A stretch of 47,319 bases of DNA, taken from positions 1 to 47,319 of the forward strand of contig NJBI01000025.1 in NCBI GenBank assembly GCA_005222975.1, in the 5' to 3' direction. Under the pieces are notes generated by a model. That model was not told the origin of the DNA. It ran no database searches and worked only from the letters and a program-made list of their open reading frames with translations. How positions within the stretch are numbered: position 1 is the first letter of the stretch; each line of letters opens with the position of its first letter. This stretch comes from Promethearchaeota archaeon Loki_b31. GTDB lineage: Archaea > Asgardarchaeota > Lokiarchaeia > Sigyniarchaeales > SOKP01. The translations under genes and the position numbers were made by a program. Shown here piece after piece: positions 13,524-32,451 of the stretch.

Positions 13524-14627
13524 ATGTCTGAAAATATTATATATCTCGACGCAAAAACACTTGAAAGTTTCATGAGAGATGTTTTTATTGGGCTTGGGGT
13601 TCCTAAAGACGATGCCCACATTATAGCTGAAGTATTAATTGCTTCTGATATTAGAGGAATTGATACCCATGGAATACAACGTTGTAAAATGTATTTCGAT
13701 CGTATCAAAGCTGGAATGTACGAAGTAATTACAAAGATTGACATCGTTAAGGATGGACCTACTACGGCTCTTTGGGACGGAAATTGCGGAATGGGTCACG
13801 TTATTGCTTATAAGGCGATGAAAACTGCGATTGAAAAAGCGAAAAAGTATGGGCTTGGTTCTGTTGCTGTTCGAAATTCGACCCACTTTGGAATTGCGGG
13901 TTACTATTCCCTCATGGCTACAAAGGAAGGGATGATTGGCTTCGCAGTTACTAACGCTCGACCCTCAATGCCCCCTACTTTTGGAGTTGAGCCAATGTTA
14001 GGAACAAATCCGTTAACAGTAGGCGCTCCAACAGACGAAGAGTTCCCCTTTTTAATTGACTGTGCCACTACAATCGTTCAAAGGGGTAAGGTAGAATTAT
14101 ATAATAGAATAAATAAACCTTTACCAGATGGGGTGGTAATAACAGACGATGGTAAAACAGAAACTGATCCTGCTAAAATATTAGAAGGTATGAGTAAAGG
14201 GAAAGCTGCGTTATTACCCTTAGGTGGCAAAGGAGAAGGTACTTCAGGTTATAAAGGTTATGGTTATGCAACCTTAGTTGAAATATTATCTGCGGCTTTA
14301 CAAGATGGAATATATCTTAAAGATACGATAGGTATCGTTGAAAACGGCCAAAAACGCTTAAAAGTGGGACATTTCTTTCTAGCAATTAATATTGAAAGCT
14401 TCTTATCAATTGGTTCTTTTAAAAAAACAGCCGGAAATATCATGAAGGGATTGAGAGAGTCAAAAAAGGCTCCAGGCGAGGAAAAGATTTACACGGCGGG
14501 AGAGAAGGAATTTATTGCCGAACAAGAAAGATTAAAAACGGGAATTCCGATTAACAAAAGTTTACAAGAAGATATCAAAATTATGCGAAAGGAACTTCAT
14601 CTGGATAAATATGAATTTAATTTTTAA
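13524..14627 (+). CDS. Ldh_2 family (malate/L-lactate/sulfolactate dehydrogenase-like) oxidoreductase, copy 1
   Basis: RGIDTHG, RNSTHFGIAGYY, GTNP, GYKGYG, YTAGEKE. Confidence 0.92.
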   Translation: MSENIIYLDAKTLESFMRDVFIGLGVPKDDAHIIAEVLIASDIRGIDTHGIQRCKMYFDRIKAGMYEVITKIDIVKDGPTTALWDGNCGMGHVIAYKAMKTAIEKAKKYGLGSVAVRNSTHFGIAGYYSLMATKEGMIGFAVTNARPSMPPTFGVEPMLGTNPLTVGAPTDEEFPFLIDCATTIVQRGKVELYNRINKPLPDGVVITDDGKTETDPAKILEGMSKGKAALLPLGGKGEGTSGYKGYGYATLVEILSAALQDGIYLKDTIGIVENGQKRLKVGHFFLAINIESFLSIGSFKKTAGNIMKGLRESKKAPGEEKIYTAGEKEFIAEQERLKTGIPINKSLQEDIKIMRKELHLDKYEFNF

Positions 14628-14801
14628 AAAAGTATCCTTTATTTTTCTATAAATTTCTAATACTTTTTCTATAAAATTATCAAAAAAATCTCTAAAAATT
14701 ATTAAAATTAGAGTTACACGAACTTTCAACTTATATTCAATATGATTTTAATTAAATAGAAGGAATTCTAGTAAAATTCTATTGCATTCAAGGTAGTTTA
14801 A

Positions 14802-15935
14802 ATGACAAGTACAAAAAGTGACATAGTACCCTTATCTAGTGATATTATTTACATAGATTTTAAGACTCTCAAGAATTTTATTAGAGATGTATTCATTGGT
14901 CTTAAGGTAAATAAAGTAGATTCTGAAATAATTGCAGATGTATTAATTACATCCGATTTAAGAGGAATAGATTCGCATGGTATTCAGAGATGTAAGATGT
15001 ATTACGATAGGATTAAAAAAGGAATTTATAACACAAAAACTAAGATCAAGATCGTTAGAAAAGGTCCTACGACTGCGGTTATTGATGGTGGATGTGGGTT
15101 AGGACCGATTATAGGTTATAATGCTATGAAATTAGCGATTCAAAAAGCCAAAAAGTATGGACTCGGAGCTGTTGCAGTTAGGAATTCTACGCATTTTGGA
15201 ATTGCGGGATATTACTCTCTTATGGCTATAAAAGAAGGAATGATAGGGATTACAACCACTAACGCTAGACCCGCTGTTCCTCCAACATTTGGTGTAGAAC
15301 CAATGTTAGGTACAAATCCATTGACTGCGGGGGCACCAACAGACGAAAATTTTCCTTTTATGATTGATTGTGCTACCTCAATTATTCAAAGGGGTAAGAT
15401 AGAAGTTTATAATAGAGCGCAAAAACCGCTTCCTGAAGGAGTAATCATAACCAAGAATGGAAGAACGCAAAACGATCCTCAAGAAACATTAAAAAATTTA
15501 GAAGATAGTACTGCAGCTCTTTTACCGCTAGGGGGTGAAGGTGAAAATACATCAGGTTATAAGGGTTTTGGATATGCTACACTTGTAGAAATTTTATCAT
15601 CAGCATTACAAAATGGAGTATTCCTTAAAGATACAGCAGGAGTTATCGAAGAAGACCAAAAACGCTTAAAAGTTGGACATTTCTTTTTAGCAATAAATGT
15701 AAACCACTTTACGCCCTTGAAATTGTTTAAACGAACTACTGGGACAATTATGAGAACTCTTAGAAACTCTAAGAAAGCACCTGGTAAAAATCGAATATAT
15801 ACTGCTGGAGAAAAAGAATATTATTCTGAAAAAGTAAGAAAAAAACAAGGCATTCCAATTAATAAAAGTTTACAAGAAGATATTAAAACAATGCAAGAAG
15901 AACTGGGTTTATTTAGCTATAATTTTTCATTTTAG
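14802..15935 (+). CDS. Ldh_2 family oxidoreductase, copy 2 (tandem paralog)
   Basis: Same motifs; long identical blocks with copy 1 (PPTFGVEPMLGTNPLT; QKRLKVGHFFLAIN; GIPINKSLQEDIK). Confidence 0.92.
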   Translation: MTSTKSDIVPLSSDIIYIDFKTLKNFIRDVFIGLKVNKVDSEIIADVLITSDLRGIDSHGIQRCKMYYDRIKKGIYNTKTKIKIVRKGPTTAVIDGGCGLGPIIGYNAMKLAIQKAKKYGLGAVAVRNSTHFGIAGYYSLMAIKEGMIGITTTNARPAVPPTFGVEPMLGTNPLTAGAPTDENFPFMIDCATSIIQRGKIEVYNRAQKPLPEGVIITKNGRTQNDPQETLKNLEDSTAALLPLGGEGENTSGYKGFGYATLVEILSSALQNGVFLKDTAGVIEEDQKRLKVGHFFLAINVNHFTPLKLFKRTTGTIMRTLRNSKKAPGKNRIYTAGEKEYYSEKVRKKQGIPINKSLQEDIKTMQEELGLFSYNFSF

Positions 15936-15936
15936 A

Positions 15937-17379
15937 TTAAAAAAAAATTCCATCTGTTCGACCTTCTAAAGGTTCAGAATGGATAATAATTTCTGTTAGA
16001 TTTTCAATTTTCAGAGTTTCTTCTATTTGTTGCTCTAAATTTGAAACTATATTATGAACTTTCGAAATGTTTAAGGATCCATCAAAAAAAACATGGAGTT
16101 CGAGTGTACAAAAATCAAGTGCTGCCCAAAATTCTAAACCATGATATCCTTTAACTTCTGGATTACTTTTTAATAAGCTTTCTAAAGTTATCTGGAGTTC
16201 TCTTTTCTTTTGAGGGTCAATAGGAATACAGACTAAGTGATCAGTTACTAATTTTCGTATCATAGCATCTGATTCTATATGAGTAATTATTCGTGATATA
16301 GACGGAACTTGTTCCTTTAGTTGATTTTCAAACATAATACTTAATTCATGAGCTTCTTCTAGTGATAAATTCTCGTCAACGACTATTGCTACAGATAAAA
16401 AGTATTTATTTTTTATTCTGAAAATGTTTAAATTCCTAAAATCTGAAATCTCATTAAATTCACTTTTCATTGAATGAAGCAAGTTAATTATCTCTTCACC
16501 TATTGAAGATTCACTACTTAAAGGATTCATCTCAACTATACATTCTACATTATACGACGAAAAATATTTTTTACTCAATGTATGAATTGCTTTTGTAATT
16601 TGATTTGCATGAACGACAGATATATGATCTTCAACAGATAAGCGAACATCTAAAAATAATGTATTTCCACCAATTCTGACTTTTAATTCTTCAACACCAT
16701 TAACATGATCAAGATTAAAAACCTTTTCTTTGATTTCTTCTATAATAAGATAACTTATGGGGTTTTCATCAATTAAATCTTTAATTCCTTCTTTTGAAAG
16801 CTTAAATGCGGTGAATATTATCCATAAAGAGAGACCAATACTAAAAAATGGGTCTAAAAATTGGATACTGAAAAAGAGAGCTAAAATGAAATTAATCATA
16901 ACTACAATCGCTCTAAGAGAATCTTGGAACAAATTTAGTCCCAGAATTTTAAGTGATAAGCTACTCCGTTTCTTTCCTTGCCACATTAAAATTCTAGAAA
17001 AAGCTAAATTAATAATGAATGAAATAATTAACAGTTGAAACCCTAAATCAGGATTCATAATACCATACGCGTTGGTTAATATTGTTTGAACTGCTAAATA
17101 AATAATAATACAATATAGATTGATCAATATAATTCCTTGAATTAATCCCCCTATTGAATCAATCTTGGAATGCCCGTACATATGTTGGAAATCTGGGGGC
17201 TTTTGACTTATAACCAGAGAATAAATTGTTAGAAAAATAAAAAAAATATCAGTAAGCGTATCAACAGTTTCAGCTAAAAAACTAAGACTTCCCGTTAGGA
17301 TTACCCCTAGTAGTTTTAAACCTGACTGAATTAGGATTATGAAAAAAGTAATAATTCCTAATTTAATTTTTATGTCCAT
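15937..17379 (-). CDS. Cation diffusion facilitator with three tandem C-terminal ZT-dimer-like domains
   Basis: SLSFLAETVDTLTD, PPD..HMYGHSK; three repeats ending ISVVHAN/LSLEEAHE/LNISKVHN...IHSEP. Confidence 0.85.
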   Translation of the reverse strand: MDIKIKLGIITFFIILIQSGLKLLGVILTGSLSFLAETVDTLTDIFFIFLTIYSLVISQKPPDFQHMYGHSKIDSIGGLIQGIILINLYCIIIYLAVQTILTNAYGIMNPDLGFQLLIISFIINLAFSRILMWQGKKRSSLSLKILGLNLFQDSLRAIVVMINFILALFFSIQFLDPFFSIGLSLWIIFTAFKLSKEGIKDLIDENPISYLIIEEIKEKVFNLDHVNGVEELKVRIGGNTLFLDVRLSVEDHISVVHANQITKAIHTLSKKYFSSYNVECIVEMNPLSSESSIGEEIINLLHSMKSEFNEISDFRNLNIFRIKNKYFLSVAIVVDENLSLEEAHELSIMFENQLKEQVPSISRIITHIESDAMIRKLVTDHLVCIPIDPQKKRELQITLESLLKSNPEVKGYHGLEFWAALDFCTLELHVFFDGSLNISKVHNIVSNLEQQIEETLKIENLTEIIIHSEPLEGRTDGIFF

Positions 17380-17495: not shown

Positions 17496-18725
17496 TTAGA
17501 GGTGTCTTGGAATTTTAATTTCGAGATCTGTAATTGGGTAGGATGCGCATGGATGGAAATAGTCAAATTTCTTATCCCCAGCTTTTCTCCAATCAGAAAC
17601 GGGACTTATATATACATCACCAGAAATAAGAAGAGAACGACAGAATCCACATTCGCCAGAGCGGCATTTTGATGGTGGATTTAAGTTTGCCCGTTCTAGA
17701 GCAACAAGAACTGATTCGGTTGCCTTTGCTGGTATGTCTTTAATCAAACTTCCAATGTGAGTCTTAATCTTAAATACCTTATCGGCTACATCTTGAGGGA
17801 AGTCTGGATTACTTAGAATATCTTTAATTTCACCAAATGCCTCTCTACGGACGCGCTTATGATGTAAATTGAACTTTTCTAATTCTTTTTCAACAAAATT
17901 ATACATAACTTGTGGTCCACAGATAAAAAATGAACTGTTGTTTACATCGCAATATTTTTCTATAATATCAGAAGTTAAAAAACCCAATTCAGATCCTTCA
18001 ACGGTAACTTCTTCACAACTTAAAACATGCACGACTTTAATTTTATCCGGGTACTTCTTTTCAAGCTCTTTAAATTCGTTGTAATAAATGATATCATCTT
18101 CTTCGCTACTTCCATACAGCAAAGTTAATTTTGCATCTAATTTATCATCAACAATTTCTTTAGCGATGGAACGGAATGGCGTAATTCCTGATCCTCCTGC
18201 GAGACCGACTATCTGTGTTAAATCCCTAAGAGGCTCGTAAAAAAAGAATCCCTCTGGTCCAGAACTTTCAACATTAGTTCCTACTTTCCAACTATCCCAT
18301 ATGTATCCAGTTAAAAATCCGGGTTCTTCTTTTCTAATCGTAATTTCGTAGAAACCTTTTAAAGCATCCGCAGGAGAAGAAGCTATTGAATAAGGTCTTG
18401 TGATTGCAATTCCATTTACTTCAACTTTTAAACTTAAATATTGACCCGCTCTAAAATAAGCCAATTCTTTTGTGTTTGAATCGGGATCGGGTTTGAGCTT
18501 AAATGTTTTAGTGGATTTTGTTTCGTCTTTGATTTCACTGATAACTAAGTATTGTCTTATGGGATGAAGTCGCACAGCAAGTTCATTCATTGGATCCTTT
18601 GTTATTGGCTCACTAGATGCCTTTTCGAACCTCTTTTTTCGGTTTGGGACTAATTTTGTAAACGCAAATAAATCTCTTGTGTTGCTTTTAATAATTATAT
18701 CAAATTTCTTTTTTTCTTCGCTCAT
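17496..18725 (-). CDS. FAD/NAD-binding FNR-type reductase with C-terminal [2Fe-2S] ferredoxin domain
   Basis: FRAGQY, RPYSIAS, AGGSGITPF, ICGPQVM, CRSGECGFC...HPC; ATG overlaps the upstream stop region (coupled). Confidence 0.9.
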   Translation of the reverse strand: MSEEKKKFDIIIKSNTRDLFAFTKLVPNRKKRFEKASSEPITKDPMNELAVRLHPIRQYLVISEIKDETKSTKTFKLKPDPDSNTKELAYFRAGQYLSLKVEVNGIAITRPYSIASSPADALKGFYEITIRKEEPGFLTGYIWDSWKVGTNVESSGPEGFFFYEPLRDLTQIVGLAGGSGITPFRSIAKEIVDDKLDAKLTLLYGSSEEDDIIYYNEFKELEKKYPDKIKVVHVLSCEEVTVEGSELGFLTSDIIEKYCDVNNSSFFICGPQVMYNFVEKELEKFNLHHKRVRREAFGEIKDILSNPDFPQDVADKVFKIKTHIGSLIKDIPAKATESVLVALERANLNPPSKCRSGECGFCRSLLISGDVYISPVSDWRKAGDKKFDYFHPCASYPITDLEIKIPRHL

Positions 18726-20290
18726 TTTAACTCACCTTTTTTATGTAAATCTTGTAAAGTTAGTAACGCAGCAGTTTCTCCATCCTTTAAAGCACTACTA
18801 TATCCGTGACATCTTTTGCCAAAACCTCCACAAAATTCAAGACCCTCAATATGTTTTTCGTCATTCATCGTCATCAAGCGTGGGACAAAAGAATCCCAAG
18901 AATCTGGTTCGTATCCATATACAACTCCATTATAACTTCTGGTAAATCTTGAAATGGTTTGAGGCGTAGCAACTTCAATCTCTTCAATATGTTCCTTTAT
19001 TGGAGCACCAGTGGTTTTTTCCAAAGTGTTAATAAGGTCTTCCGCGATTTTATTTTTTAATGTAAAGTAATCTTCGGGTTTTACATCGTCCCATACTCCC
19101 GGTAGAAAAGCAGTTGTAATCGAAATAATACACGTTCCTGGAGGTGAGCAGTCTGGGATTGCATTATTTAAACAAATTGTTGCTTGAACCTTAGGCGTTT
19201 CAAGGTTGTTCAAAGATTCATAAAGTTCATCAGTATTCATATTGTTATTAATAAAATAACTATAATCTTTGAGTCCTAATTCATCGGCCGTTGCATCTAA
19301 ACCCAAATAAACAACAAATGTAGAAACTCCATGCCGTCTAGCATTTATTTCCTTATAAGCAATTTCTGGAACTTCTGATTTAGGATGTATTAATTTGTTA
19401 TAAGTAAGCGTGGGGGAAGCGTTGCAAACTACATGATTCGTTTTAATCTTATCTCCTTTAGACGTTTCAACTCCGATAACTTTACCGTTTTCAACCAATA
19501 TCTTTTCTACTGCCGTGTTATATTCGATTTTACCTCCTAATTCTCTAATCCTTGTATCTAGAGCGGTAGTGTAGTCGTGAGATCGAAATTTTGGAATATA
19601 AGCACCTTTTAAAATATAACCATAAACCATAGCAGCAAAGATCGTAAAATTCAATCTACTCATTGGAAGTCCTAAATAAACCCAATACGCGTTAAGAATG
19701 CTCCTTGCTTTTTCTGGAATATTAAGGGCATTTTGAACATCCTCCACAGAATAAGCTGTAGTTTTAAGGAAATTTGAATGCTCCTTTAATAGTACATTTT
19801 GATCTGGGTGTCCTTTTGTCTGCCCTATATAAGACATTGCTCTATTAATGTCTTGAGCTAGGTTAAAAAGTTTTCTTACCGATTCTCTACTTCCCGGGAC
19901 TTCTTTTTCAATAGTATCAAGATAAGAATCGACACCAAAAGGCATTACTACATCAACACCTTCATCTGGGTCTGTTAAAATTAACCTATACGCTTCAGGG
20001 ACTTCTACGAACTCTGAATCTAGTTCATATTTTTCTAATAATCTTCTAGTGCCGCCCTTATCCGATGAAGACCCCCAATCATAAAGTTCATGAAGTGAAG
20101 TTTCAAATTCAAACCTTCCTCTCACAAAACTAGATGCAAATCCTCCCGGTAAGTTATGTTGTTCTAAAAGCAGTATTTTAACACCTCTCATTGCTAATTC
20201 TGCGGCGGCTACTAAACCACCATTACCAGCGCCAATTATTACAACATCATATGTTTCGCTAATTACTTGTCCAATGCTCTCATCACTCAT
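18722..20290 (-). CDS. Phytoene desaturase / retinol saturase-like FAD-dependent oxidoreductase
   Basis: DVVIIGAGNGGL, LEQHNLPGGFASSFVRGRFEFE, STFVVYLGLD, EVATPQT..RFT..YNG.VYG. Confidence 0.88.
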   Translation of the reverse strand: MSDESIGQVISETYDVVIIGAGNGGLVAAAELAMRGVKILLLEQHNLPGGFASSFVRGRFEFETSLHELYDWGSSSDKGGTRRLLEKYELDSEFVEVPEAYRLILTDPDEGVDVVMPFGVDSYLDTIEKEVPGSRESVRKLFNLAQDINRAMSYIGQTKGHPDQNVLLKEHSNFLKTTAYSVEDVQNALNIPEKARSILNAYWVYLGLPMSRLNFTIFAAMVYGYILKGAYIPKFRSHDYTTALDTRIRELGGKIEYNTAVEKILVENGKVIGVETSKGDKIKTNHVVCNASPTLTYNKLIHPKSEVPEIAYKEINARRHGVSTFVVYLGLDATADELGLKDYSYFINNNMNTDELYESLNNLETPKVQATICLNNAIPDCSPPGTCIISITTAFLPGVWDDVKPEDYFTLKNKIAEDLINTLEKTTGAPIKEHIEEIEVATPQTISRFTRSYNGVVYGYEPDSWDSFVPRLMTMNDEKHIEGLEFCGGFGKRCHGYSSALKDGETAALLTLQDLHKKGELK

Positions 20291-20565: not shown

Positions 20566-23532
20566 ATGAATGAATTAGAAATTGATAAAGAGATTGAAAA
20601 TTTTAAAGAGCAATTAAATTTACTAGCTATGATATTCGATACACGTAGAAAAATGCGTAGAGAGATATCTAACGAAAAAACTGGATTTGTCTTTAATGCC
20701 AAATATCAGTTTACTACTAAAGATGATGAAGTTAATGTTTACGTAATATTTAAAGATGGAAAAATGACAGTCGGCGAGGGAAAAATTGAAGATCCCAACA
20801 TAACTATTTATTATAAAGATAAAGAGACTTTGGCAAATCTTTATAATAAAAGTGCTGAAGAATCTCTTGATTATCTTTTGACAAATGAAATGGGGTATAT
20901 AGGGAACATGTCTTACCTTACTAAATTCTCTTATCTTACCTCACTTGTTATGGCACCTAAAAAAAGGGACTATAAGGGTCCAGAAAATCGATTAATATAT
21001 CCTATCGAAGATATTGATAAGGGAAAAAAGAGCAGAAAACTAAGGAACGAGAGCTTAAATCGTAAGATCGATAATGTTCAAGTTTTAGAAGATCCGTATT
21101 TATCAAAATATACCTTAGATGATTTTCCACGCTTAAAATATTTGAAGAATAGACGATTTGCCTTAAAGCCAGTGATATGTGTTGAAAGAGCAAAACATTT
21201 GACAGAATATCATAGAGAGAATGGTTTTGAAGTAGATAATTCAGGAAATCCGATAGATCCCGAATTGCGCCAGGCAAGAGCAGTAAATCATATAATGTCA
21301 AATAAGAAACCAATAATTCATGATAAACATCTTATAGCAGGTTCAACTACTTCAAAAGAAGTAGGTATCCCCTTGTATCCGGAACTTATCGCGACGGGTA
21401 TATGGCCTGAACTAAAAACTATTGGTGAACGTGAGCTTAATCCTAATGATATCTCAGATAAAGATGCGGATATATTAAGTTTGGAAGTGTTTCCCTATTG
21501 GATGAAGCGGAATGTAAGAGAATATTGTAGAGCAAAAAACAACGATCCATTCTCGCAGCATTTAGAAGAAGGGTGGGTTTTTTATTTCATGATGAAAAAT
21601 AACGCGATTAGTCATACTGTTCCTGGTTTTCCAATGGTGCTTAATGAAGGGTTAGAAAGCGTAAAGAACAAAGCCAATAAAATGGAACTAAAAGCGGATA
21701 CAACTGAAAAGCAAAATTTTTATAAGGCAATTCAAATTGCAATCGATGGGGTTCTAGCGTATTCTAAACATTTAAGTGAAGAAGCCCTTAGATCTGCTAA
21801 TAATTTAGAAGAAAATAATCCAGATCAAGCTACTCGCATAGAGGAATTGAAGGAACTCTCTAGAATATGTGCTAAAGTCCCTGCTAAACCCGCAGAAACA
21901 ATATATGAAGCAGTTCAATCAATTTGGACTAGTTTTGTTTGTCTTCACTGTGAAAATGCAAATTCGGCTTTATCAATTGGTCGGCTTGATCAGATGTTAC
22001 AACCTTTCTTTTTAAAAGAAATCGAAAAAGCTGCAAATGATGAAGAAAGAAATCAAATTGTAAAAAAAGCTATAGAACTTGTAGGATCGTTATTTTTGAG
22101 GATAAATGATCACGATCCGGTAATGCCGAATGTAGGTTGGAAATTATTCGGGGGGAGCTCCTCTGACGACACAGTAACTATTGGAGGCGTAGATAGAGAT
22201 GGTAAAAATGCCGTAAACGATATGAGTTTTATTATATTAAAAACAAATGAAATGCTGGGTTTTCAGGATCCTAATATGAATGCCAGGTACTATTCTGGTA
22301 TTAATTCAAAGGAGTATCTAAGACGATTGTGTGAAGTAAACATCAATATGGGCGCTTCGCCTAGTATTCATAACGATAGAACTATGATTGAAGCGTTGGT
22401 CCATGAAGAATTCTCAATTGAAGACGCAAGAGATTGGGCGGCTACAGGTTGTGTAGAGCCCACAATTGTGGGTAAACATTATGGTCATACGAATTGTATG
22501 CTTTTAAACTTAGTCGCACCATTAGAAATTACGTTAAACAATGGTTTCATACCTTTAACTGGAGAAAAAGTGGGTCCTGAAACGGGTGATGTTCGAACAT
22601 CTTTCCCGACATTCGAGGACTTTCTTAATGCATATAAAACTCAACTCAGATATTTAGTAGAAAAATCAATTGAAATAAATAATTATTTAGGAGAAGCCCA
22701 TTGGTATATACATCCTACACCATTATTATCTGGATTCTTTGAGGGTCCTTTAGAACAAGGCAAAGATCTTATTCAAGGAGGAGCTATTTATAATACATCA
22801 GGAGTTGCCTTAGTGGCATTGACAGATGTGGTTGATAGTTTATTAGTTGTAAGAGATCTCATCTACAAGAAAAAAGAATTGAACTTTGCTACATTGATGG
22901 ATGCCATTGAAAATAACTTTGAGAATGGTTATGAATCAGTTTTACACAATATAGAACAAGTTCCAAAATTTGGGTCTGGTGAAAATGGTACTGTCGAACT
23001 TGCTCAAGATTTAATTGACTTCTGCTATGAAGCTTATCATTCTACTGATAATTATAGAGGGGGTAAATACTTAGTGGGATATTGGTCTATTAGTTACCAC
23101 GCAGGATTTGGAATGCTTACTGGCGCCTTGCCCTCAGGTAGAAAGAAAGGTAAATCATTAACACCTGGATTAACTCCCGCCCCGGGTACAACGGATATCC
23201 TATTGCCAAGTATTCAAAGTGTTGCGAGCTTAGATTATTTGAAAATGGCAAATAATGCATCTTATAACGTAAAATTAATACCTCATTCTGGAGATTCCCA
23301 TGAAGAAACATTAGATCTCTTTACAAGTTATGTGCAAAGCTTTTTTGATTTGAATGGGATGCAGTGGCAATTTAATGTCGTATCCACTGATACATTAAGA
23401 GATGCGATGACAAATCCGATTGATTACCGCTGGCTTTTAGTTAGAGTTTCCGGATATAACGCATATTTCACGAAATTAAATAAGAATATGCAATTAGAAT
23501 TTATTGAGCGGCATGAATATAAATCAAGATAA
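20566..23532 (+). CDS. Glycyl radical enzyme (eliminase-like GCVE) with N-terminal SCP2-like lipid-binding domain
   Basis: Catalytic ATGCVEP (Cys codon 22450), glycyl loop LLVRVSGYNAYF, GRLDQ, TIGG; N-terminal about 120 aa matches the SCP2 pattern (YQF...IFKDGKMTVGEG..EDPNITI...GNM..L.K). Confidence 0.9.
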   Translation: MNELEIDKEIENFKEQLNLLAMIFDTRRKMRREISNEKTGFVFNAKYQFTTKDDEVNVYVIFKDGKMTVGEGKIEDPNITIYYKDKETLANLYNKSAEESLDYLLTNEMGYIGNMSYLTKFSYLTSLVMAPKKRDYKGPENRLIYPIEDIDKGKKSRKLRNESLNRKIDNVQVLEDPYLSKYTLDDFPRLKYLKNRRFALKPVICVERAKHLTEYHRENGFEVDNSGNPIDPELRQARAVNHIMSNKKPIIHDKHLIAGSTTSKEVGIPLYPELIATGIWPELKTIGERELNPNDISDKDADILSLEVFPYWMKRNVREYCRAKNNDPFSQHLEEGWVFYFMMKNNAISHTVPGFPMVLNEGLESVKNKANKMELKADTTEKQNFYKAIQIAIDGVLAYSKHLSEEALRSANNLEENNPDQATRIEELKELSRICAKVPAKPAETIYEAVQSIWTSFVCLHCENANSALSIGRLDQMLQPFFLKEIEKAANDEERNQIVKKAIELVGSLFLRINDHDPVMPNVGWKLFGGSSSDDTVTIGGVDRDGKNAVNDMSFIILKTNEMLGFQDPNMNARYYSGINSKEYLRRLCEVNINMGASPSIHNDRTMIEALVHEEFSIEDARDWAATGCVEPTIVGKHYGHTNCMLLNLVAPLEITLNNGFIPLTGEKVGPETGDVRTSFPTFEDFLNAYKTQLRYLVEKSIEINNYLGEAHWYIHPTPLLSGFFEGPLEQGKDLIQGGAIYNTSGVALVALTDVVDSLLVVRDLIYKKKELNFATLMDAIENNFENGYESVLHNIEQVPKFGSGENGTVELAQDLIDFCYEAYHSTDNYRGGKYLVGYWSISYHAGFGMLTGALPSGRKKGKSLTPGLTPAPGTTDILLPSIQSVASLDYLKMANNASYNVKLIPHSGDSHEETLDLFTSYVQSFFDLNGMQWQFNVVSTDTLRDAMTNPIDYRWLLVRVSGYNAYFTKLNKNMQLEFIERHEYKSR

Positions 23533-23621
23533 ACCTTATGAAAGATATTTTTTTTATTCATTTTATCTAACTTTTTAATTTTTTTATCTTTACTTTTATT
23601 GACGATATTATATTCTCAACA

Positions 23622-24521
23622 ATGACAGATAAAACTCTATTAGTAGATATTAAAAGGAACGCTTTAGATGACGGTCCGGGAATAAGAACATTACTTTTTT
23701 TTAAAGGATGCCCACTTTCTTGTGTATGGTGCCAAAATCCTGAGGCTAAATCGCCATTTAAAGAAATCTCTTTTAATAAAGATAGCTGTAGTGAATGTGG
23801 AACATGTTTAAAAGTTTGTAATCAAGATGCTATAGATTTTTCAAATAAGTATCGAATAGATCGCTCTTTATGTAATCTCTGTGGTAAATGCATTGAAGTA
23901 TGCCCAAATTATGCCTTAGAATTTGTAGGACAAGAATATAGCATAAAAGAATTACTTGAAATTATATTAAAAGATAAAATTTTTTATAAAAATTCAGGTG
24001 GAGGGGTTACTTTTTCTGGTGGAGAACCACTTTATCATATAGATTACATAAATGAATTAGTAAAAGAACTCAAAAAAGAAGATATTCATGTATGTTTAGA
24101 GACCAGTGGATATTATAATCGAGACAAATTTTATGAATTTATTTTACCATATATCGACCTTATTTATTTTGATTTGAAAATTTACAATCCAAAATTACAT
24201 GCTAGATATTGTAAAGTTTCAAACGAGAGCATATTAGAAAATTTTGAAGATATCATTAAAAACAAATCAATAGAAATATTACCAAGGATTCCTCTTATTC
24301 CTAATATAACAGATACAGATGAAAATTTGAGTAACTTAGCTAATTATTTGAAAACCTTTAAAATAAAAAAAATAGGATTATTACCTTATAATCCACTCTG
24401 GCTCTCTAAACCAGAAAAGATAGGAATTAAACCATCCTATGACTATACTGCATGGTTAGATAATAAAGATAAAGAGAGAATTAAATCAATTTTTTCTGAT
24501 TTTGAATTTAACGATTTATAG
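23622..24521 (+). CDS. Glycyl-radical enzyme activating protein with ferredoxin-like insert
   Basis: DGPGIRT..FFKGCPLSCVWCQNPE, two CxxCxxCxxxC motifs, GGVTFSGGEP. Confidence 0.95.
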   Translation: MTDKTLLVDIKRNALDDGPGIRTLLFFKGCPLSCVWCQNPEAKSPFKEISFNKDSCSECGTCLKVCNQDAIDFSNKYRIDRSLCNLCGKCIEVCPNYALEFVGQEYSIKELLEIILKDKIFYKNSGGGVTFSGGEPLYHIDYINELVKELKKEDIHVCLETSGYYNRDKFYEFILPYIDLIYFDLKIYNPKLHARYCKVSNESILENFEDIIKNKSIEILPRIPLIPNITDTDENLSNLANYLKTFKIKKIGLLPYNPLWLSKPEKIGIKPSYDYTAWLDNKDKERIKSIFSDFEFNDL

Positions 24522-24679
24522 CTAAGCAATTTAATTTATTTTTTCTAATTTTTATATTTTCAAAATAACCTTGTCATAACATTTAAATAGATGAATCCCT
24601 ATACATATAACATAAGCATATCTTTTAAAATTAGAAAAGATGTTAGTATAACAATTACTTAAGAAAAAGGTGATATTGT

Positions 24680-25243
24680 ATGACTACTATTGCAGAAAAA
24701 TTAATAAAAGAATTAAAAACAAAAGCTTTAACAATTCTTCAATTAAGTGAAATAACAGGGATTGAAGAGCCTAAAATAAGGACTACAATTAATAGGTTAA
24801 AAGAAAAAACCATAGTACAAGAGTCAGGAATGTTTTTAGACAGATATAAAATATATAAACTATCAGACAAATTGTTTAATGCATCTTTCATAATGAGGAT
24901 GATAAAGAAGCTTGATGGTGTAAAAGCTGTCATTCTTATAAGTAATGTTGATGGTGCGCCAATAAGTAGTATACTTCCGGAAGGAATTAATGAATCCCGT
25001 TATGCCACAATGACTATAACTATGTTTAATTTGATGGAAAGAGCATGTAAAGAAATTAATAAAGGAAAATTTAAATTCTGTCATATTGATGGAGAAGATG
25101 GAAAACTTCTTATCATTTCCTTCAATAAAGGGTTAATTTTATCGATTTCATTCGATTCAACAGTAGATAATGACCTGATGTTTACATCCTATATCAAAAT
25201 TATTGATTTGATAGGTAATTCTTTATCTGATTTAATTCAATAG
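24680..25243 (+). CDS. Winged-HTH fused to a roadblock/LC7 domain
   Basis: N-term LTILQLSEITGIEEPKIRTTINRLKEK (wHTH); C-term GVKAVILIS..DGAPISS...G.F....IDGEDGKLLI (roadblock); AGGTGA SD upstream. Confidence 0.75.
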   Translation: MTTIAEKLIKELKTKALTILQLSEITGIEEPKIRTTINRLKEKTIVQESGMFLDRYKIYKLSDKLFNASFIMRMIKKLDGVKAVILISNVDGAPISSILPEGINESRYATMTITMFNLMERACKEINKGKFKFCHIDGEDGKLLIISFNKGLILSISFDSTVDNDLMFTSYIKIIDLIGNSLSDLIQ

Positions 25244-25350: not shown

Positions 25351-27147
25351 TTAAATCGGTTTACCTTGAGCATCCCACTTTCTAATTTGGTAATACTTTT
25401 CTAATAATCCTTCTAATGGAGGAATATTTCGTTTAGTTCCACCTTTTTCAAGGGGTGTATAAAATCTCTTCCCAAAATTATCGTCTGCTTTAGTGATCCC
25501 ACATTTAACATTAAAAACTCTTTTCATTTTAATGATCTTTTGTCCTGCTTTCATGAAATCATCAACTGTATATGCTCTTCCAGTGATTGCATTAAGCCCA
25601 TTTATCCAAGGTGTGAGTTTATGGATGAACCAGAACCCAAATATACATCCACCACAAGCAGAATACGCCTCACTTGCATCCTGAATCTTTATTACAGCTT
25701 CAGCAACATCATCCCCCGTTCCAAAACGCTCTACTTGTTCGGTTAAACCGATTTCTTCTTTTTGATTCATATAGGAAGATAAATGCATCGGTTCATAACA
25801 ATGATATGCACCTCGAGGTGTTGTTGCATAATCTAATGCCGTTAGATTATTTGCTCGTGGTTCATGAGCTGGAACCTCGAGTCCTTTTCCATGCATGGAG
25901 AGTTCTTCCGGTAATCCCTTTACTTCACAAAAAGATCTCACTCCTTCAGCTAAATCATCACCAATTCCTTCTCGATAAGCAATTTTTGTGAAGAGTTTTT
26001 CTATCGGTCCAATGGCACCCCAAATATTTTCCTCAGTAAATCCAAATTCATCTAAATTAACATCAATTAGCTTTCTTTCAATAGATTCAAGAAAACATCC
26101 TATTACTGCCCCAAGACTAATTGAGTCCAGACCAAGATCATTGACTATTAAATTCCATTTGATTAAGGCCTCTAAGTCGTTAACCAATAAATTAGAACCT
26201 AGCATTCCTAGGGTTTCATATTCTGGGCGAGTAACCCATTCTCCCTCATATTCCACGAATCCCCTGCAAGCCGTTGGACAATTAAAACAGCCATGCATTT
26301 TAACTTCTCCTCTTGCGTTTAATGCTTTTGCTCCAATTTTTTTAATCCCAATCCATCTTCCCACTGTATAGTTCTTAATAATAATATCTCCTACACTAGC
26401 CATGGAATCTATGTGGACTGGCGTACCTGAATCTGCCATTACCATTCCTAATGCGGATTTCTTTAATAATTCTCTAAGTTCTTTAGCTGCATCATTTACT
26501 TTATCTTTATCTTGAACGGGAACTTTACCCGTGCCACGAACTGCAATAGCTTTTAAGTTCTTGCTACCCATAACAGCCCCCATTCCGCAACGTCCAGCTG
26601 CGTGATGCTTATCATTGATTATACACGCATATTTTACTAAATTTTCTCCAGCAGGGCCAATAGTAGCTACTTTTATTTTATCGTTTCCAAGCAGTTCTTT
26701 TATTTTTTCATCAGTTTCTTGAGTTCCTTTCCCCCACAATTCAGAAGCGTCCTTTATTTCTACTTGTCCGTCGTTTATCCATAGATAAACAGGACTTTGA
26801 CTTTTACCCTTAATGATTAATAAGTCATAACCTGCGGATTTAAGCTCCTTACCAAAAAAACCTCCTGAAGATGCTTCCCCGAGGATTTTAGTTAGTGGTG
26901 ATTTTGCTGTAATAAAGTATCTACCACAGAAAGGAATTGCTGTGCCGCAAAATGGACCAACTGAGAAGATCATAAGATTATTCCCATCAAACGGATCAAT
27001 TTCGGGGTCTACTTCTCGTGTGAAGATCGCAGTTGCTAAACCCATTCCTCCGATTAAATTCACTTCATCTTCATCAGTGTAATCTTCATAGTCAATGTTT
27101 TTCGTTTCTAAATCTATTCTTAAAATTTTTGTGATTTTTATCACCAA
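25351..27147 (-). CDS. aor: Aldehyde:ferredoxin oxidoreductase (W/Mo) family
   Basis: KILRIDL, AKSPLT, IGPAGEN, AGRCGMGAVMGSKNLKAI, CFNCPTAC, PEYET, RGAYH. Confidence 0.93.
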   Translation of the reverse strand: MVIKITKILRIDLETKNIDYEDYTDEDEVNLIGGMGLATAIFTREVDPEIDPFDGNNLMIFSVGPFCGTAIPFCGRYFITAKSPLTKILGEASSGGFFGKELKSAGYDLLIIKGKSQSPVYLWINDGQVEIKDASELWGKGTQETDEKIKELLGNDKIKVATIGPAGENLVKYACIINDKHHAAGRCGMGAVMGSKNLKAIAVRGTGKVPVQDKDKVNDAAKELRELLKKSALGMVMADSGTPVHIDSMASVGDIIIKNYTVGRWIGIKKIGAKALNARGEVKMHGCFNCPTACRGFVEYEGEWVTRPEYETLGMLGSNLLVNDLEALIKWNLIVNDLGLDSISLGAVIGCFLESIERKLIDVNLDEFGFTEENIWGAIGPIEKLFTKIAYREGIGDDLAEGVRSFCEVKGLPEELSMHGKGLEVPAHEPRANNLTALDYATTPRGAYHCYEPMHLSSYMNQKEEIGLTEQVERFGTGDDVAEAVIKIQDASEAYSACGGCIFGFWFIHKLTPWINGLNAITGRAYTVDDFMKAGQKIIKMKRVFNVKCGITKADDNFGKRFYTPLEKGGTKRNIPPLEGLLEKYYQIRKWDAQGKPI

Positions 27148-29906: not shown

Positions 29907-30773
29907 CTAATTCTTTGCTGGTGATGCATAACAATAAGCACAATTGTGTTTGCAACGAAATATTCCAGTATATCCCCCAATATCTTTAGACTTGAAACAC
30001 CCGCAACCTTTTCTTTGTCCTGTATCTTTTGCTTTTGAAATCTTCTCCCCTATGATTTGCTCGATTTTATTAGCGTCAACGCAATGAGCTTGTTCAATGC
30101 CATTTATTTCAAGTAAATCGGGTTGGCAACATGCTTTCATCTCCATTTCATATTTATTGCAAATTTCTAATAATTTGTTGAGAATATCTTTCTTTTTACT
30201 TAAAGGGGGATCAAGAGGGATAAATCCTCTTGCTTTCATTCGATTGTTTACTTTTGTATAAATTGTAGCGAAGGAAAATATCATTTCTTTCAGCCCAAGA
30301 GCAGAAACTTTTTCTATTATATATTCAAATTTGTCTAGGTTACTTTTTATTCTATTTTCATCCTTCTTTTTGTAAATGATTATAGGATCAAATCTAAAAC
30401 TTACAGCGTTGGAACCAAACTCATTGATCAACCATTCTAGTTGAGCAAATCTATCTCCCAAAGAAATCTTAATATTCTTCTCTAATTCAGAAGGTGAGTT
30501 AATCGTGAATTGAAAGTAATGTCCCATATACGATTTAAAGATTTGTTTATTTTTTTCATAAGTTTTTATCCATGCTTTAAAGTTTTTAGACCACCACACC
30601 CAACATCTTACATCTTCAGATTTCAACGAAACTCGAGACACTTGTTTTCTATTAAATGGATTAACCACATCCACATAACCGATCTGGATTTTATCAATTA
30701 CCCAATCCATTAAAAAAGCGGGAATATCTGTTCTACGAGAACAAGAAATTATAGGAGATTTTACAATTTTCAT
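29907..30773 (-). CDS. DUF1848 family protein
   Basis: IISCSRRTDIPAF, RFDPII, QRKGCGC..SKDIG.Y...CKHNCAYCYA. Confidence 0.9.
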   Translation of the reverse strand: MKIVKSPIISCSRRTDIPAFLMDWVIDKIQIGYVDVVNPFNRKQVSRVSLKSEDVRCWVWWSKNFKAWIKTYEKNKQIFKSYMGHYFQFTINSPSELEKNIKISLGDRFAQLEWLINEFGSNAVSFRFDPIIIYKKKDENRIKSNLDKFEYIIEKVSALGLKEMIFSFATIYTKVNNRMKARGFIPLDPPLSKKKDILNKLLEICNKYEMEMKACCQPDLLEINGIEQAHCVDANKIEQIIGEKISKAKDTGQRKGCGCFKSKDIGGYTGIFRCKHNCAYCYASPAKN

Positions 30774-30819: not shown

Positions 30820-32451
30820 CTATTCTCCCGATAAATATAAAAGCATTGCTGAAACGAATAAATCATTTTTCTCGCTCATAGGTAATTGCTCATCTATGCT
30901 CTGCAAACCATCAAGTGAAACTCTGAACTTTCTGAGGAGTAATTCATCAAAGATCATTAAATGAGGATTTAAAAATGCTGCGCCGTTTTTTGTTTCTTTT
31001 CGTAACAATTTTCTAAATTCCGGTTCTAGCCAGATTCTAAAAGGGCCAGGGCTATGTTCTGCTTTATGTTTTATGTTGAATTTATTTTTAAGATTAATAA
31101 TAACCTCAAAGACAGTTTCGCATATTAGTTTTAAATTTTTTTCATTTTCTTTGTAGAAATATTGAATTGGGACTGGTAGGCGCATATGTAATAGTAATCC
31201 TTGACCCTTCCGAAAGTTTATATGACCGTACCCAAAAATTACTTTATGGAACCCATGCTTTACAAATAGTTCATTTATAGTTTCAATGATATCTGGTAAG
31301 TTTTTTGGTTCGCTTAAGATATCTTCAAACCCTGGAAAAGCGATATAATCAGTAGATTTGTCTTCAGTTTGGACTAATAAAGCAAAAGAAGAGCGTTCTT
31401 GAAGATAATCCTGAAATTCTTCTTCGGTTAATATTTTCCAAGAACTCTCAGCCTGCTGTTTCATTACATCAATAAATTTATCAACATTATTCTTAGATCC
31501 TTCAATAAGGGCTGCCCATTTCACCTTCTTATTCTTTTTACTTTCTCCCCCAAGTTCGCTAAACTTTCCAGGGAGGTTTTCATCTGAAATTACAAATTCA
31601 CTAACTAAGGGAAAAATCTTAGAATCTAAAACTGATTGCAAACCCTTAAACGCTAAATTCAAATTATATCCATACATAATAGCTTGTTTTAGATTAGTTT
31701 CAGGACGATATAATCGAAATACAGCGCTCAGTATTACGCCAAAATAGCCATTTCCAGCGATAATCTTCATGAAAAGAGGATGATCTTTATCAATCTCAAC
31801 GATCGTTCCGTTTGGCATCATGACACGAATTTTCTCGACCCAATTTTCAACCGAACCCAATTTTCCTGAAGTTACTCCGCTTGCATTCGAAGCAATTAAT
31901 CCTCCTACTCTTACAGGTAGCTTTAAAGCACTCGCTGGTTGAACGGGAAAAACAAATTCCTTTTTGCTTTCAAATAGAGTACATTTAATTAGATCTGATA
32001 CTAAAACATTTTGATTAGACCGAACCGTACTTTTTTTTAAATCGAGTTTAATTGGTTCCTTATAGGAGCTAAAATCAACCATATCAACAATAATACCAAA
32101 ATTTCCATAACTTCCAGAAAGGCCCGTTTTTCCTCCAGCAAATGTAATGGGAATCTTAAATTTCTGAGAATTTTTTACTATAACTCGTAGTTGTGTCTCT
32201 ACTTTAGGTCTAAACAGAACGTAAGGTCTTATGTGCAGGTGTGAGGTATCTCGAATAACGCTAGCTTGTATTGGATCTCCAACAAGCATCACATAACCCG
32301 ATTGAATGAGTTGGTTATAATTTTTACTTTTTGATATTTTGGAGACCATTATGGAACTTAATTTAAAAAAACCTTCCCTTTCCATGTGGTCTAAAAATGG
32401 CTCCCATGGTAGTTTATCTTGAAGACCTTTGATCAAAGTATTTTTTTCCAT
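30820..32451 (-). CDS. FAD-linked oxidoreductase (GlcD/D-lactate dehydrogenase/VAO-like superfamily)
   Basis: GGKTGLSG, P.S...VGGLIASNASG, GYFGVI, C-terminal AEHSPG. Confidence 0.8.
   Translation of the reverse strand: MEKNTLIKGLQDKLPWEPFLDHMEREGFFKLSSIMVSKISKSKNYNQLIQSGYVMLVGDPIQASVIRDTSHLHIRPYVLFRPKVETQLRVIVKNSQKFKIPITFAGGKTGLSGSYGNFGIIVDMVDFSSYKEPIKLDLKKSTVRSNQNVLVSDLIKCTLFESKKEFVFPVQPASALKLPVRVGGLIASNASGVTSGKLGSVENWVEKIRVMMPNGTIVEIDKDHPLFMKIIAGNGYFGVILSAVFRLYRPETNLKQAIMYGYNLNLAFKGLQSVLDSKIFPLVSEFVISDENLPGKFSELGGESKKNKKVKWAALIEGSKNNVDKFIDVMKQQAESSWKILTEEEFQDYLQERSSFALLVQTEDKSTDYIAFPGFEDILSEPKNLPDIIETINELFVKHGFHKVIFGYGHINFRKGQGLLLHMRLPVPIQYFYKENEKNLKLICETVFEVIINLKNKFNIKHKAEHSPGPFRIWLEPEFRKLLRKETKNGAAFLNPHLMIFDELLLRKFRVSLDGLQSIDEQLPMSEKNDLFVSAMLLYLSGE

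Follow-up and report, generated by a model that had tools for sequence, protein, structure and literature searches.

The DNA analysed comprises 47,319 nucleotides of contig NJBI01000025.1 from Promethearchaeota archaeon Loki_b31 (assembly GCA_005222975.1; the whole stretch is hereafter called the window), and the gene under study encodes a protein of 988 aa, P0001. P0001 is a glycyl radical enzyme (GRE), in which the catalytic barrel, the glycine motif and the catalytic cysteine are accompanied by an adjacent activase. Structure prediction and sequence comparison indicate that it is of the eliminase type, with a Cys-x-Glu loop, and has gained an N-terminal carrier domain with the fold of sterol carrier protein 2 (SCP2) that is predicted to be docked on the barrel. 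About an even chance is given to the reading that P0001 acts as a radical 1,2-eliminase on a lipid alcohol, yielding an aldehyde, with ether lipids or long-chain vicinal diols as leading candidate substrates. An initial annotation, made from the sequence alone, had proposed an SCP2-fused GRE acting on a hydrophobic substrate; the observation itself was confirmed, and the interpretation was partly supported.

Architecture of the SCP2-fused glycyl radical enzyme

The positions of the features are listed in Table 1. Pfam placed the PFL-like barrel (PF02901) on residues 191-849 of P0001 (E 4.7e-154) and the Gly_radical domain (PF01228) on residues 866-969 (E 1.5e-22). The Cys loop reads T-G628-C629-V630-E631-P and the Gly loop R960-V-S-G963-Y964; both were invariant among 40 homologues, in agreement with the GCVE and RVSGY motifs that had been noted as intact. 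Cys629 aligns with Cys433 of the B12-independent glycerol dehydratase (GDH). The likewise invariant His350 aligns with a histidine of the first barrel strand in GDH (His164), propanediol dehydratase (PD) and HypD (His160), which we take to be the acid for the oxygen leaving group. When P0001 was compared with GDH, Cys433, Glu435 and His164 were found to be kept, whereas His281/Ser282 are replaced by Ser/Ala and Asp447 by Asn. The active-site segments ENANSALSIGRLDQ, FGGSSSDDTVTIGG and YWSISYH, initially described as different from those of a broader set of known GREs, were recovered in P0001; they are unlike the aligned stretches of GDH, PD, HypD and Archaeoglobus fulgidus PflD, so that the distinction holds for these four enzymes, to which the residue-by-residue comparison was limited.

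The activase P0002, separated from the GRE gene by 89 nt, reached 290 bits with the TIGR02494 model (cut-off 174) and contains a CxxxCxxC motif plus two ferredoxin-like Cys clusters. The gap between the GRE gene and the CrtI-like gene on its other side measures 275 nt (open reading frames of the window). The DNA near the locus is AT-rich (G+C of ~30-34%).

Among solved structures, the closest relative of P0001 was A. fulgidus PflD (2f3o; E 5.5e-111), followed by PD, HypD, GDH and CutC (1e-106 to 1e-95). Distant relatives were MasD (3.6e-56), TutD (2.2e-49), the decarboxylase HPAD (2y8n; 8.6e-35) and PFL (8.8e-26).

Because the alignment to GDH begins at about residue 189, P0001 carries ~185 extra residues at its N-terminus, close to the number first estimated. 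The first 200 residues were strongly conserved in an alignment of 39 homologues, from which an AlphaFold2 (AF2) model of the N-terminal part was built. The mean predicted local distance difference test score (pLDDT) of this model was 76, with values of 83-92 over residues 1-90 and 111-120. A Foldseek search with the model gave 36 matches with E <= 1e-3, essentially all of which were SCP2 proteins or domains (best E 5e-6), including UbiJ-SCP2, A. fulgidus AF1534, the alkylsulfatases SdsA1, PisA1 and YjcS, the SCP2L domain of MFE-2, and insect and yeast SCP2. In a VIA-align search of 48,161 chain representatives, the top nine matches were SCP2 chains (Z 10.2-12.1, root-mean-square deviation 2.6-5.1 Å over 106-116 residues), after which Z fell to 7.3 and then to 6.1, the value of the first unrelated match. 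Since both structure searches put SCP2 proteins on top, residues 1-135 are predicted, as the initial annotation had suggested, to adopt the SCP2 fold, with strong support from the fold and weak support from the sequence. No relative was found when residues 1-195 were searched against PDB sequences with phmmer. A feature search of the ESM Atlas, used as a lead only, returned small proteins, 16-27% of which carried PF02036.

The full-length AF2 model of P0001 had a predicted template modelling score of 0.89 and a mean pLDDT of 82. For a docking test, residues 1-140 were supplied as a separate chain together with residues 186-988. The predicted complex scored 0.87, as opposed to 0.01 for the best control; a score as high as this was seen in 58 of 80 solved complexes and in 2 of 110 mismatched pairs, counts that hold only roughly, since alignments made for this analysis were used. 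The runs shared at least 69% of their contacts, with a partner pLDDT of at least 81. On the core, the predicted contacts comprise residues 277-286, 305-323, 335-337, 521-527, 664-666 and 851, several of which are a few positions away in sequence from the His loop (344-350), F528-D535, the Cys loop region (629-648) and Y839-H845. The models thus support, but do not show, a fixed docking site for the SCP2 domain at the side of the barrel where the active-site loops emerge.

Table 1. Features of the SCP2-GRE locus (positions in the window).
Feature	Position	Strand	Basis and remarks
SCP2-fused glycyl radical enzyme gene (988 aa, P0001)	20566..23532	+	ORF/translation, Pfam PFL-like + Gly_radical, AF2 model
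N-terminal domain, predicted SCP2 fold, residues 1-135	20566..20970	+	Foldseek + VIA-align, weak Pfam SCP2, conservation
Linker, residues 136-185, conserved YKGPEN + EDPYL	20971..21120	+	pLDDT 54-66, conservation
GRE catalytic barrel + glycyl radical domain, residues 186-988	21121..23529	+	Pfam; PflD 2f3o relative
His350 codon	21613..21615	+	Aligns with His164 of glycerol dehydratase; invariant
Cys629-Val630-Glu631 of Cys loop	22450..22458	+	Translation, invariant among homologues
Arg960-Val-Ser-Gly963-Tyr964, glycyl radical motif	23443..23457	+	Translation, invariant among homologues
GRE-activating radical SAM enzyme (299 aa, P0002)	23622..24521	+	TIGR02494; directly 3' of GRE in 36/56 loci
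Aldehyde:ferredoxin oxidoreductase family protein (598 aa)	25351..27147	-	Pfam AFOR_N + AFOR_C; convergent to GRE
CrtI/carotenoid-isomerase-like FAD oxidoreductase	18722..20290	-	NCBIfam + Pfam; divergent neighbour, link to GRE uncertain
PaaE-like FAD/NAD(P)H reductase with 2Fe-2S domain	17496..18725	-	Pfam + NCBIfam; 4-nt overlap with CrtI-like gene

Distribution, split form and genomic neighbourhood

A search of 5.8 billion proteins returned 337 relatives of P0001, the best 120 of which were almost all 982-1003 aa long and 62-97% identical over their full length. Named sources were Lokiarchaeota/Promethearchaeota, Thor-, Hermod- and Freyarchaeota, Desulfatibacillum and Desulfomonilia. When the GTDB species genomes were scanned with an alignment of the N-terminal part, 67 loci were obtained, ~45 of them from Asgard archaea and the others from Desulfobacterales, Desulfosudaceae, Desulfatibacillum, Thermodesulfobacteriota and Bacteriovoracaceae; the closest (97%) came from a Promethearchaeia metagenome-assembled genome. 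The active-site stretches KNNAISHT, ENANSALSIGRLDQ, FGGSSSDDTVT, GCVEPT..GKHYGHTNCMLLN and GYWSISYH are near-invariant from archaea to bacteria, and this conservation argues for one substrate class common to the SCP2-GRE family. Desulfobacterota also contain paralogous GRE subfamilies of ~1000 aa with 41-47% identity and related motifs. The locus or close relatives of it were present in metagenomes of marine sediment, subsurface and cold seeps. Contigs from libraries registered as metatranscriptomic, 95-97% alike, covered the CrtI-like gene, the GRE gene and the aldehyde:ferredoxin oxidoreductase (AOR) gene in one study and the GRE gene in a second. They are compatible with transcription of the locus in situ; assembled contigs allow DNA carry-over, carry no expression levels and are uninformative as to transcript ends or stretches without coverage.

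In one fused paralogue, P0224 (985 aa), GCVEP is replaced by GGAMQP and RVSGY by LLVGISGY. As judged from its sequence, P0224 is probably a catalytically dead GRE, since neither the catalytic Cys nor the Gly-motif Arg is present. The 3.5-Mb Asgard genome to which the window belongs contains six full GRE genes (see G000:C48:16489-18432, which corresponds to L087, and L088, L089, L090 and L092), an unusually rich complement for an archaeon. One of the six is an equivalog of trans-4-hydroxy-L-proline dehydratase (1293 bits, cut-off 1100).

The SCP2-like module also exists as a separate protein. A phmmer search with residues 1-185 against 1.84 billion representatives gave 135 matches, many of which were stand-alone proteins of ~150 aa. 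P0142, for example, which shares 36% identity with the N-terminal domain, is encoded between an 820-aa GRE and its activase. Residues 173-985 of P0001 and this GRE are 40% identical, so that the alignment of the split type begins at residue 173. Using a 14-row alignment of the stand-alone proteins, 351 metagenome contigs with the split form were confirmed. Among the best 80, the 3' end of a GRE gene lay directly upstream of the SCP2-like gene in 57 of the 67 loci with an upstream flank, and an activase gene directly downstream in 48 of the 71 loci with a downstream flank. In the resulting operon (L095:3290-7340; L096-L175), a GRE of ~820 aa, an SCP2-like protein of ~150 aa and the activase follow each other, often with an uncharacterised ~800-aa protein ahead and a DUF6765 protein after them.

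A FastTree phylogeny based on the catalytic cores grouped 13 fused with 34 split GREs in one clade (support 100, branch length 0.49), outside which fell the 13 GRE paralogues without SCP2 from three genomes; the fused GREs were monophyletic, and so were the split ones. This tree was built with FastTree only, using limited outgroups and sequences other than characterised reference GREs. Because the split gene lies between GRE and activase, the arrangement provides Rosetta-stone evidence for the SCP2 module being a functional partner of this GRE clade. The module, fused or split, marks a large uncharacterised GRE clade, the split form alone accounting for at least 351 metagenome contigs.

To obtain neighbour counts, open reading frames were called and clustered in 56 loci with a full GRE gene and named by Pfam and NCBIfam. 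Apart from the directly downstream activase (36 of 56), AOR was found in 23 loci and enoyl-CoA hydratase (ECH) in 14. When only genes at most 5 kb away from the GRE were counted, AOR was present in 18 of 39 archaeal and 4 of 17 bacterial loci, and ECH in 4 archaeal and 9 bacterial ones. A 602-aa acyl-CoA dehydrogenase (ACAD) was present in five of the 56 and an acyl-CoA ligase, which scores best on long-chain fatty-acid-CoA ligase models, in four. When the loci were reduced to 20 lineages at 80% GRE identity, ECH occurred in nine, AOR in five, ACAD in three and the ligase in two. Tight arrangements were seen in several loci, such as L067, where genes for a V4R protein, an 831-aa GRE, a long-chain acyl-CoA ligase-like protein, ECH, AOR, ACAD and the SCP2-GRE follow one another on the same strand. 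In L064, the same-strand order is activase, ECH, GRE and AOR; in L054, ECH is followed by an ACAD gene that overlaps the start of the GRE gene. The AOR is likely to be the consumer of the GRE product. Phosphoesterases lie near the GRE in a few lineages (Metallophos in one Asgard subclade, HAD in some bacteria).

Several other genes of these loci were recorded. The L067 operon (L067:437-13674; Desulfobacterales), which thus has two GREs, also encodes an AF_1327-like protein; its 831-aa GRE is of the GCVEPTGDGNTFGCTS type, which was also seen near the SCP2-GRE in L060. The CrtI-like gene was found in 21 and the PaaE-like gene in 19 of the 56 loci. The pair is conserved within the Loki-type clade only, with duplications in L028 and L030, and was dropped as a part of the system: it occurs in one of the 20 lineages, and shared descent explains the pairing equally well. 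An assignment of the ACAD as acryloyl-CoA reductase or 3-sulfinopropanoyl-CoA desulfinase was not used, as the nearest NCBIfam matches were far under their cut-offs. A presumed second GRE of 991 aa, in tandem upstream of the gene in seven Asgard loci, turned out to be alanyl-tRNA synthetase.

Between activase and AOR, the window contains a gene (24680-25243, +) for a TrmB-like winged helix fused to a Roadblock/LC7 domain. This gene is a strain-variable insert, since one contig (run X15) joins 24540 to 25216 and so skips it, and most related loci are without it. Two Ldh_2 genes in tandem (malate/L-lactate dehydrogenase family) and a gene for a CDF cation-efflux protein that has an additional dimerisation domain (13524-15935, +, and 15937-17379, -) are syntenic with the GRE locus across the Loki-type clade. 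A DUF1848 protein (29907-30773, -, in the window; L060:13657-14646) is encoded a few kb from the SCP2-GRE in ten loci, one of them bacterial, and is followed in the window by an FAD_binding_4 oxidase (30820-32451).

Proposed reaction and alternative explanations

Elimination on the head of a lipid would be the simplest explanation for P0001, because the Cys-x-Glu loop, the dehydratase-like His, the polar pocket, the docked carrier fold and the recurrent neighbours would all be accounted for. In the reaction proposed, the activase would put the radical on Gly963, from which it would be passed to Cys629. The SCP2 domain would hold the hydrophobic tail of the lipid and present its oxygenated head to a candidate polar pocket formed by Ser531-Asp535, Asn643 and Tyr839-His845. 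The thiyl radical could then abstract H from the carbinol carbon, with Glu631 deprotonating the carbinol OH and His350 protonating an oxygen leaving group, either OH or O-alkyl, at the adjacent carbon, to give an aldehyde. Judging from the neighbouring genes, the aldehyde may be oxidised to the acid by AOR, the acid activated by the long-chain acyl-CoA ligase and the thioester processed by ACAD and ECH.

The most likely candidate substrates are glycerol ether lipids (archaeol, mono-/dialkylglycerols) or long-chain vicinal diols/polyols. Archaeal membranes consist mostly of ether lipids. Those of two cultured carriers, Desulfatibacillum aliphaticivorans and D. alkenivorans, are likewise composed mostly of alkyl glycerol ethers (PMC5552659). 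This membrane composition of the carriers makes glycerol ether lipids the leading candidate, although the first step would suit long-chain vicinal diols or hopanepolyols just as well. That the substrate would be hydrophobic and the product an aldehyde, as the initial annotation had it, gains independent support from these membranes and from AOR, ECH, ACAD and long-chain ligase-like neighbours that recur in distant lineages.

An extension of this reading, in which the whole clade, with SCP2 fused or separate, would cleave C-O bonds of glycerol ether membrane lipids by anaerobic radical chemistry, is doubtful. On this speculative route, H would be abstracted at the free carbinol carbon of archaeol or an alkylglycerol, and the vicinal alkoxide (or hydroxide) would leave to give an alcohol and 3-alkoxypropanal. 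AOR would oxidise the 3-alkoxypropanal, the CoA ligase would activate the acid, ACAD would form 3-alkoxyacryloyl-CoA, and hydration by ECH would give a hemiacetal, from which the second chain would be released. The route would account for ACAD and ECH among the neighbours.

Several points weigh against lipid elimination by P0001. The protein reached no NCBIfam equivalog cut-off (HypD 423 of 1100 bits, CutC, TIGR04394, 399 of 1050, HpsG 366 of 1000; 535 of 678 for the subfamily model TIGR01774), so the chemistry is extrapolated. GCVE, initially taken as the mark of 1,2-eliminases, does form a Cys loop of the eliminase type but is not exclusive to it, since Glu at Cys+2 also occurs in GRE decarboxylases (HPAD, Cys503/Glu505). 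On the N-terminus of P0001, PF02036 stayed below threshold (E 0.003; 18.1 bits, gathering score 21.3). Split-type operons have no recognisable lipid genes, just the ~800-aa protein and DUF6765, and the SCP2-GRE gene of Desulfatibacillum stands alone, with no activase or AOR nearby. Moreover, genes such as those for AOR and ECH are common, and shared descent accounts for a large part of the synteny among Asgard loci.

Some of these points would fit an SCP2-like module that serves as a structural or activation accessory, comparable to the small subunits of BSS or HPAD, on an eliminase for a small soluble alcohol. Such a role would agree with the sub-threshold Pfam score, with the fixed and conserved interface at which the module is predicted to dock, with the many polar residues in the active site and with the sister clade, in which the module is a small subunit of its own and the operons are without lipid genes. 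It is nevertheless judged unlikely: lipid-binding SCP2 proteins alone make up the top structural matches, the neighbours include the long-chain acyl-CoA ligase-like gene, the 602-aa ACAD, ECH and a V4R-domain protein, and neither small-molecule transporter nor microcompartment genes were seen in the flanks examined.

Less probable still is another radical reaction on a hydrophobic substrate in place of C-O elimination, such as decarboxylation of a lipid acid or C-C or C-N cleavage. In its favour, no characterised enzyme has the same active-site residues, the neighbouring acyl-CoA genes are compatible with general acid metabolism, and the Glu at Cys+2 is shared with HPAD as stated above. Against this, the NCBIfam scores for indoleacetate decarboxylase (270 bits) and HPAD (192 bits) fall well short of those for HypD and CutC, the PDB match to HPAD is far weaker than those to the dehydratases (1e-102 to 1e-111), the His aligned with the general acid of GDH and HypD is kept, and the recurrent AOR points to an aldehyde.

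Addition of hydrocarbons to fumarate by an alkyl-/benzylsuccinate synthase-type enzyme, for which an alkane carrier domain would make sense and the hydrocarbon degraders Desulfatibacillum are found among the carriers, is highly improbable: the P0001 loop reads G-C-V-E-P...K-H with Cys644 at Cys+15, where BSS (C493/R508) and MASS (C477/R492) have the fumarate-binding Arg (PMC12358834) and a MAS sequence shows C-M-S-P...K-H...R (supplement of PMC8163825); no open reading frames for small beta/gamma (FeS) subunits flank the GRE and no small one is conserved in the 56 loci; and the similarity to MasD and TutD is far below that to the dehydratases. Hermodarchaeota PflD-like GREs have been read as Ass/Bss (PMC8163825), but five motifs of the SCP2-GRE family are absent from the sequence files of that study, and its genes were set aside as other PflD-like GREs. 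For claims of hydrocarbon activation in Asgard archaea by PflD-like GREs, this means that at least the SCP2-GRE family is without the fumarate-adder signature. A D. alkenivorans GRE with the motif "GCVY" had been suspected of being AssA; it was closest to glycerol dehydratase and so provided no reference for fumarate adders.

If the clade-wide cleavage of ether lipids holds true, it would represent the first enzymology of anaerobic ether-lipid breakdown or recycling, archaeal and bacterial, in sediments. A lipid carrier built into a GRE would bring membrane-type substrates within reach of GRE eliminase chemistry. The anaerobic fate of ether lipids (archaeol, precursors of glycerol dialkyl glycerol tetraethers, bacterial alkylglycerols) and of refractory lipid alcohols matters for sediment biogeochemistry and biomarkers. 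The SCP2-GRE family offers a clonable candidate for anaerobic lipid degradation, for which carriers in culture (Desulfatibacillum) exist and a downstream pathway is predicted.

Comparison with characterised enzymes

In agreement with the initial annotation, no characterised GRE with an SCP2 domain is described in the searchable literature; full-text searches yielded no paper that connects SCP2, a sterol carrier or ether lipids to glycyl radical enzymes. To our knowledge, every characterised GRE eliminase acts on a small soluble molecule.

A. fulgidus PflD/PFL2 (2f3o) resembles P0001 in its GCVE loop, its conserved His and its archaeal origin. Unlike P0001, it has 776 aa and no SCP2 domain, and its own substrate is unsettled; its active site contains ENYEQAIS, FSGQATNQ and an Asp at Cys+14, where P0001 has Asn. 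GDH (1r8w), PD (5i2a) and HypD (6vxc) share with P0001 the Cys-x-Glu loop, the aligned His and the adjacent activase, and their reactions yield aldehydes or remove water from a carbinol radical. They differ from it in their small soluble substrates, their length (~790-840 aa) and the lack of a carrier domain. In CutC (5fau; long form 9f3w), a vicinal leaving group is lost from a carbinol radical to give an aldehyde and, as in P0001, some forms have a long N-terminal extension; unlike in the chemistry proposed for P0001, the leaving group is an amine. We know of no report that describes the CutC extension as SCP2.

BSS (4pkc) and MASS (9o8u) are GREs that act on hydrophobic substrates with the help of accessory subunits, which are FeS proteins and not SCP2. 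The SCP2 fold serves enzymes with long hydrophobic substrates in the alkylsulfatase SdsA1 (2cfu), MFE-2 (SCP2L, 1ikt) and UbiJ (6h6p), all of which were among the top structural matches. These are not radical enzymes and are 11-17% identical to the SCP2 domain of P0001, which, unlike theirs, is placed N-terminal to a GRE. Compared with these systems, what is new in P0001 is the conserved lipid-carrier module on a GRE eliminase scaffold, and with it probably a new class of substrate.

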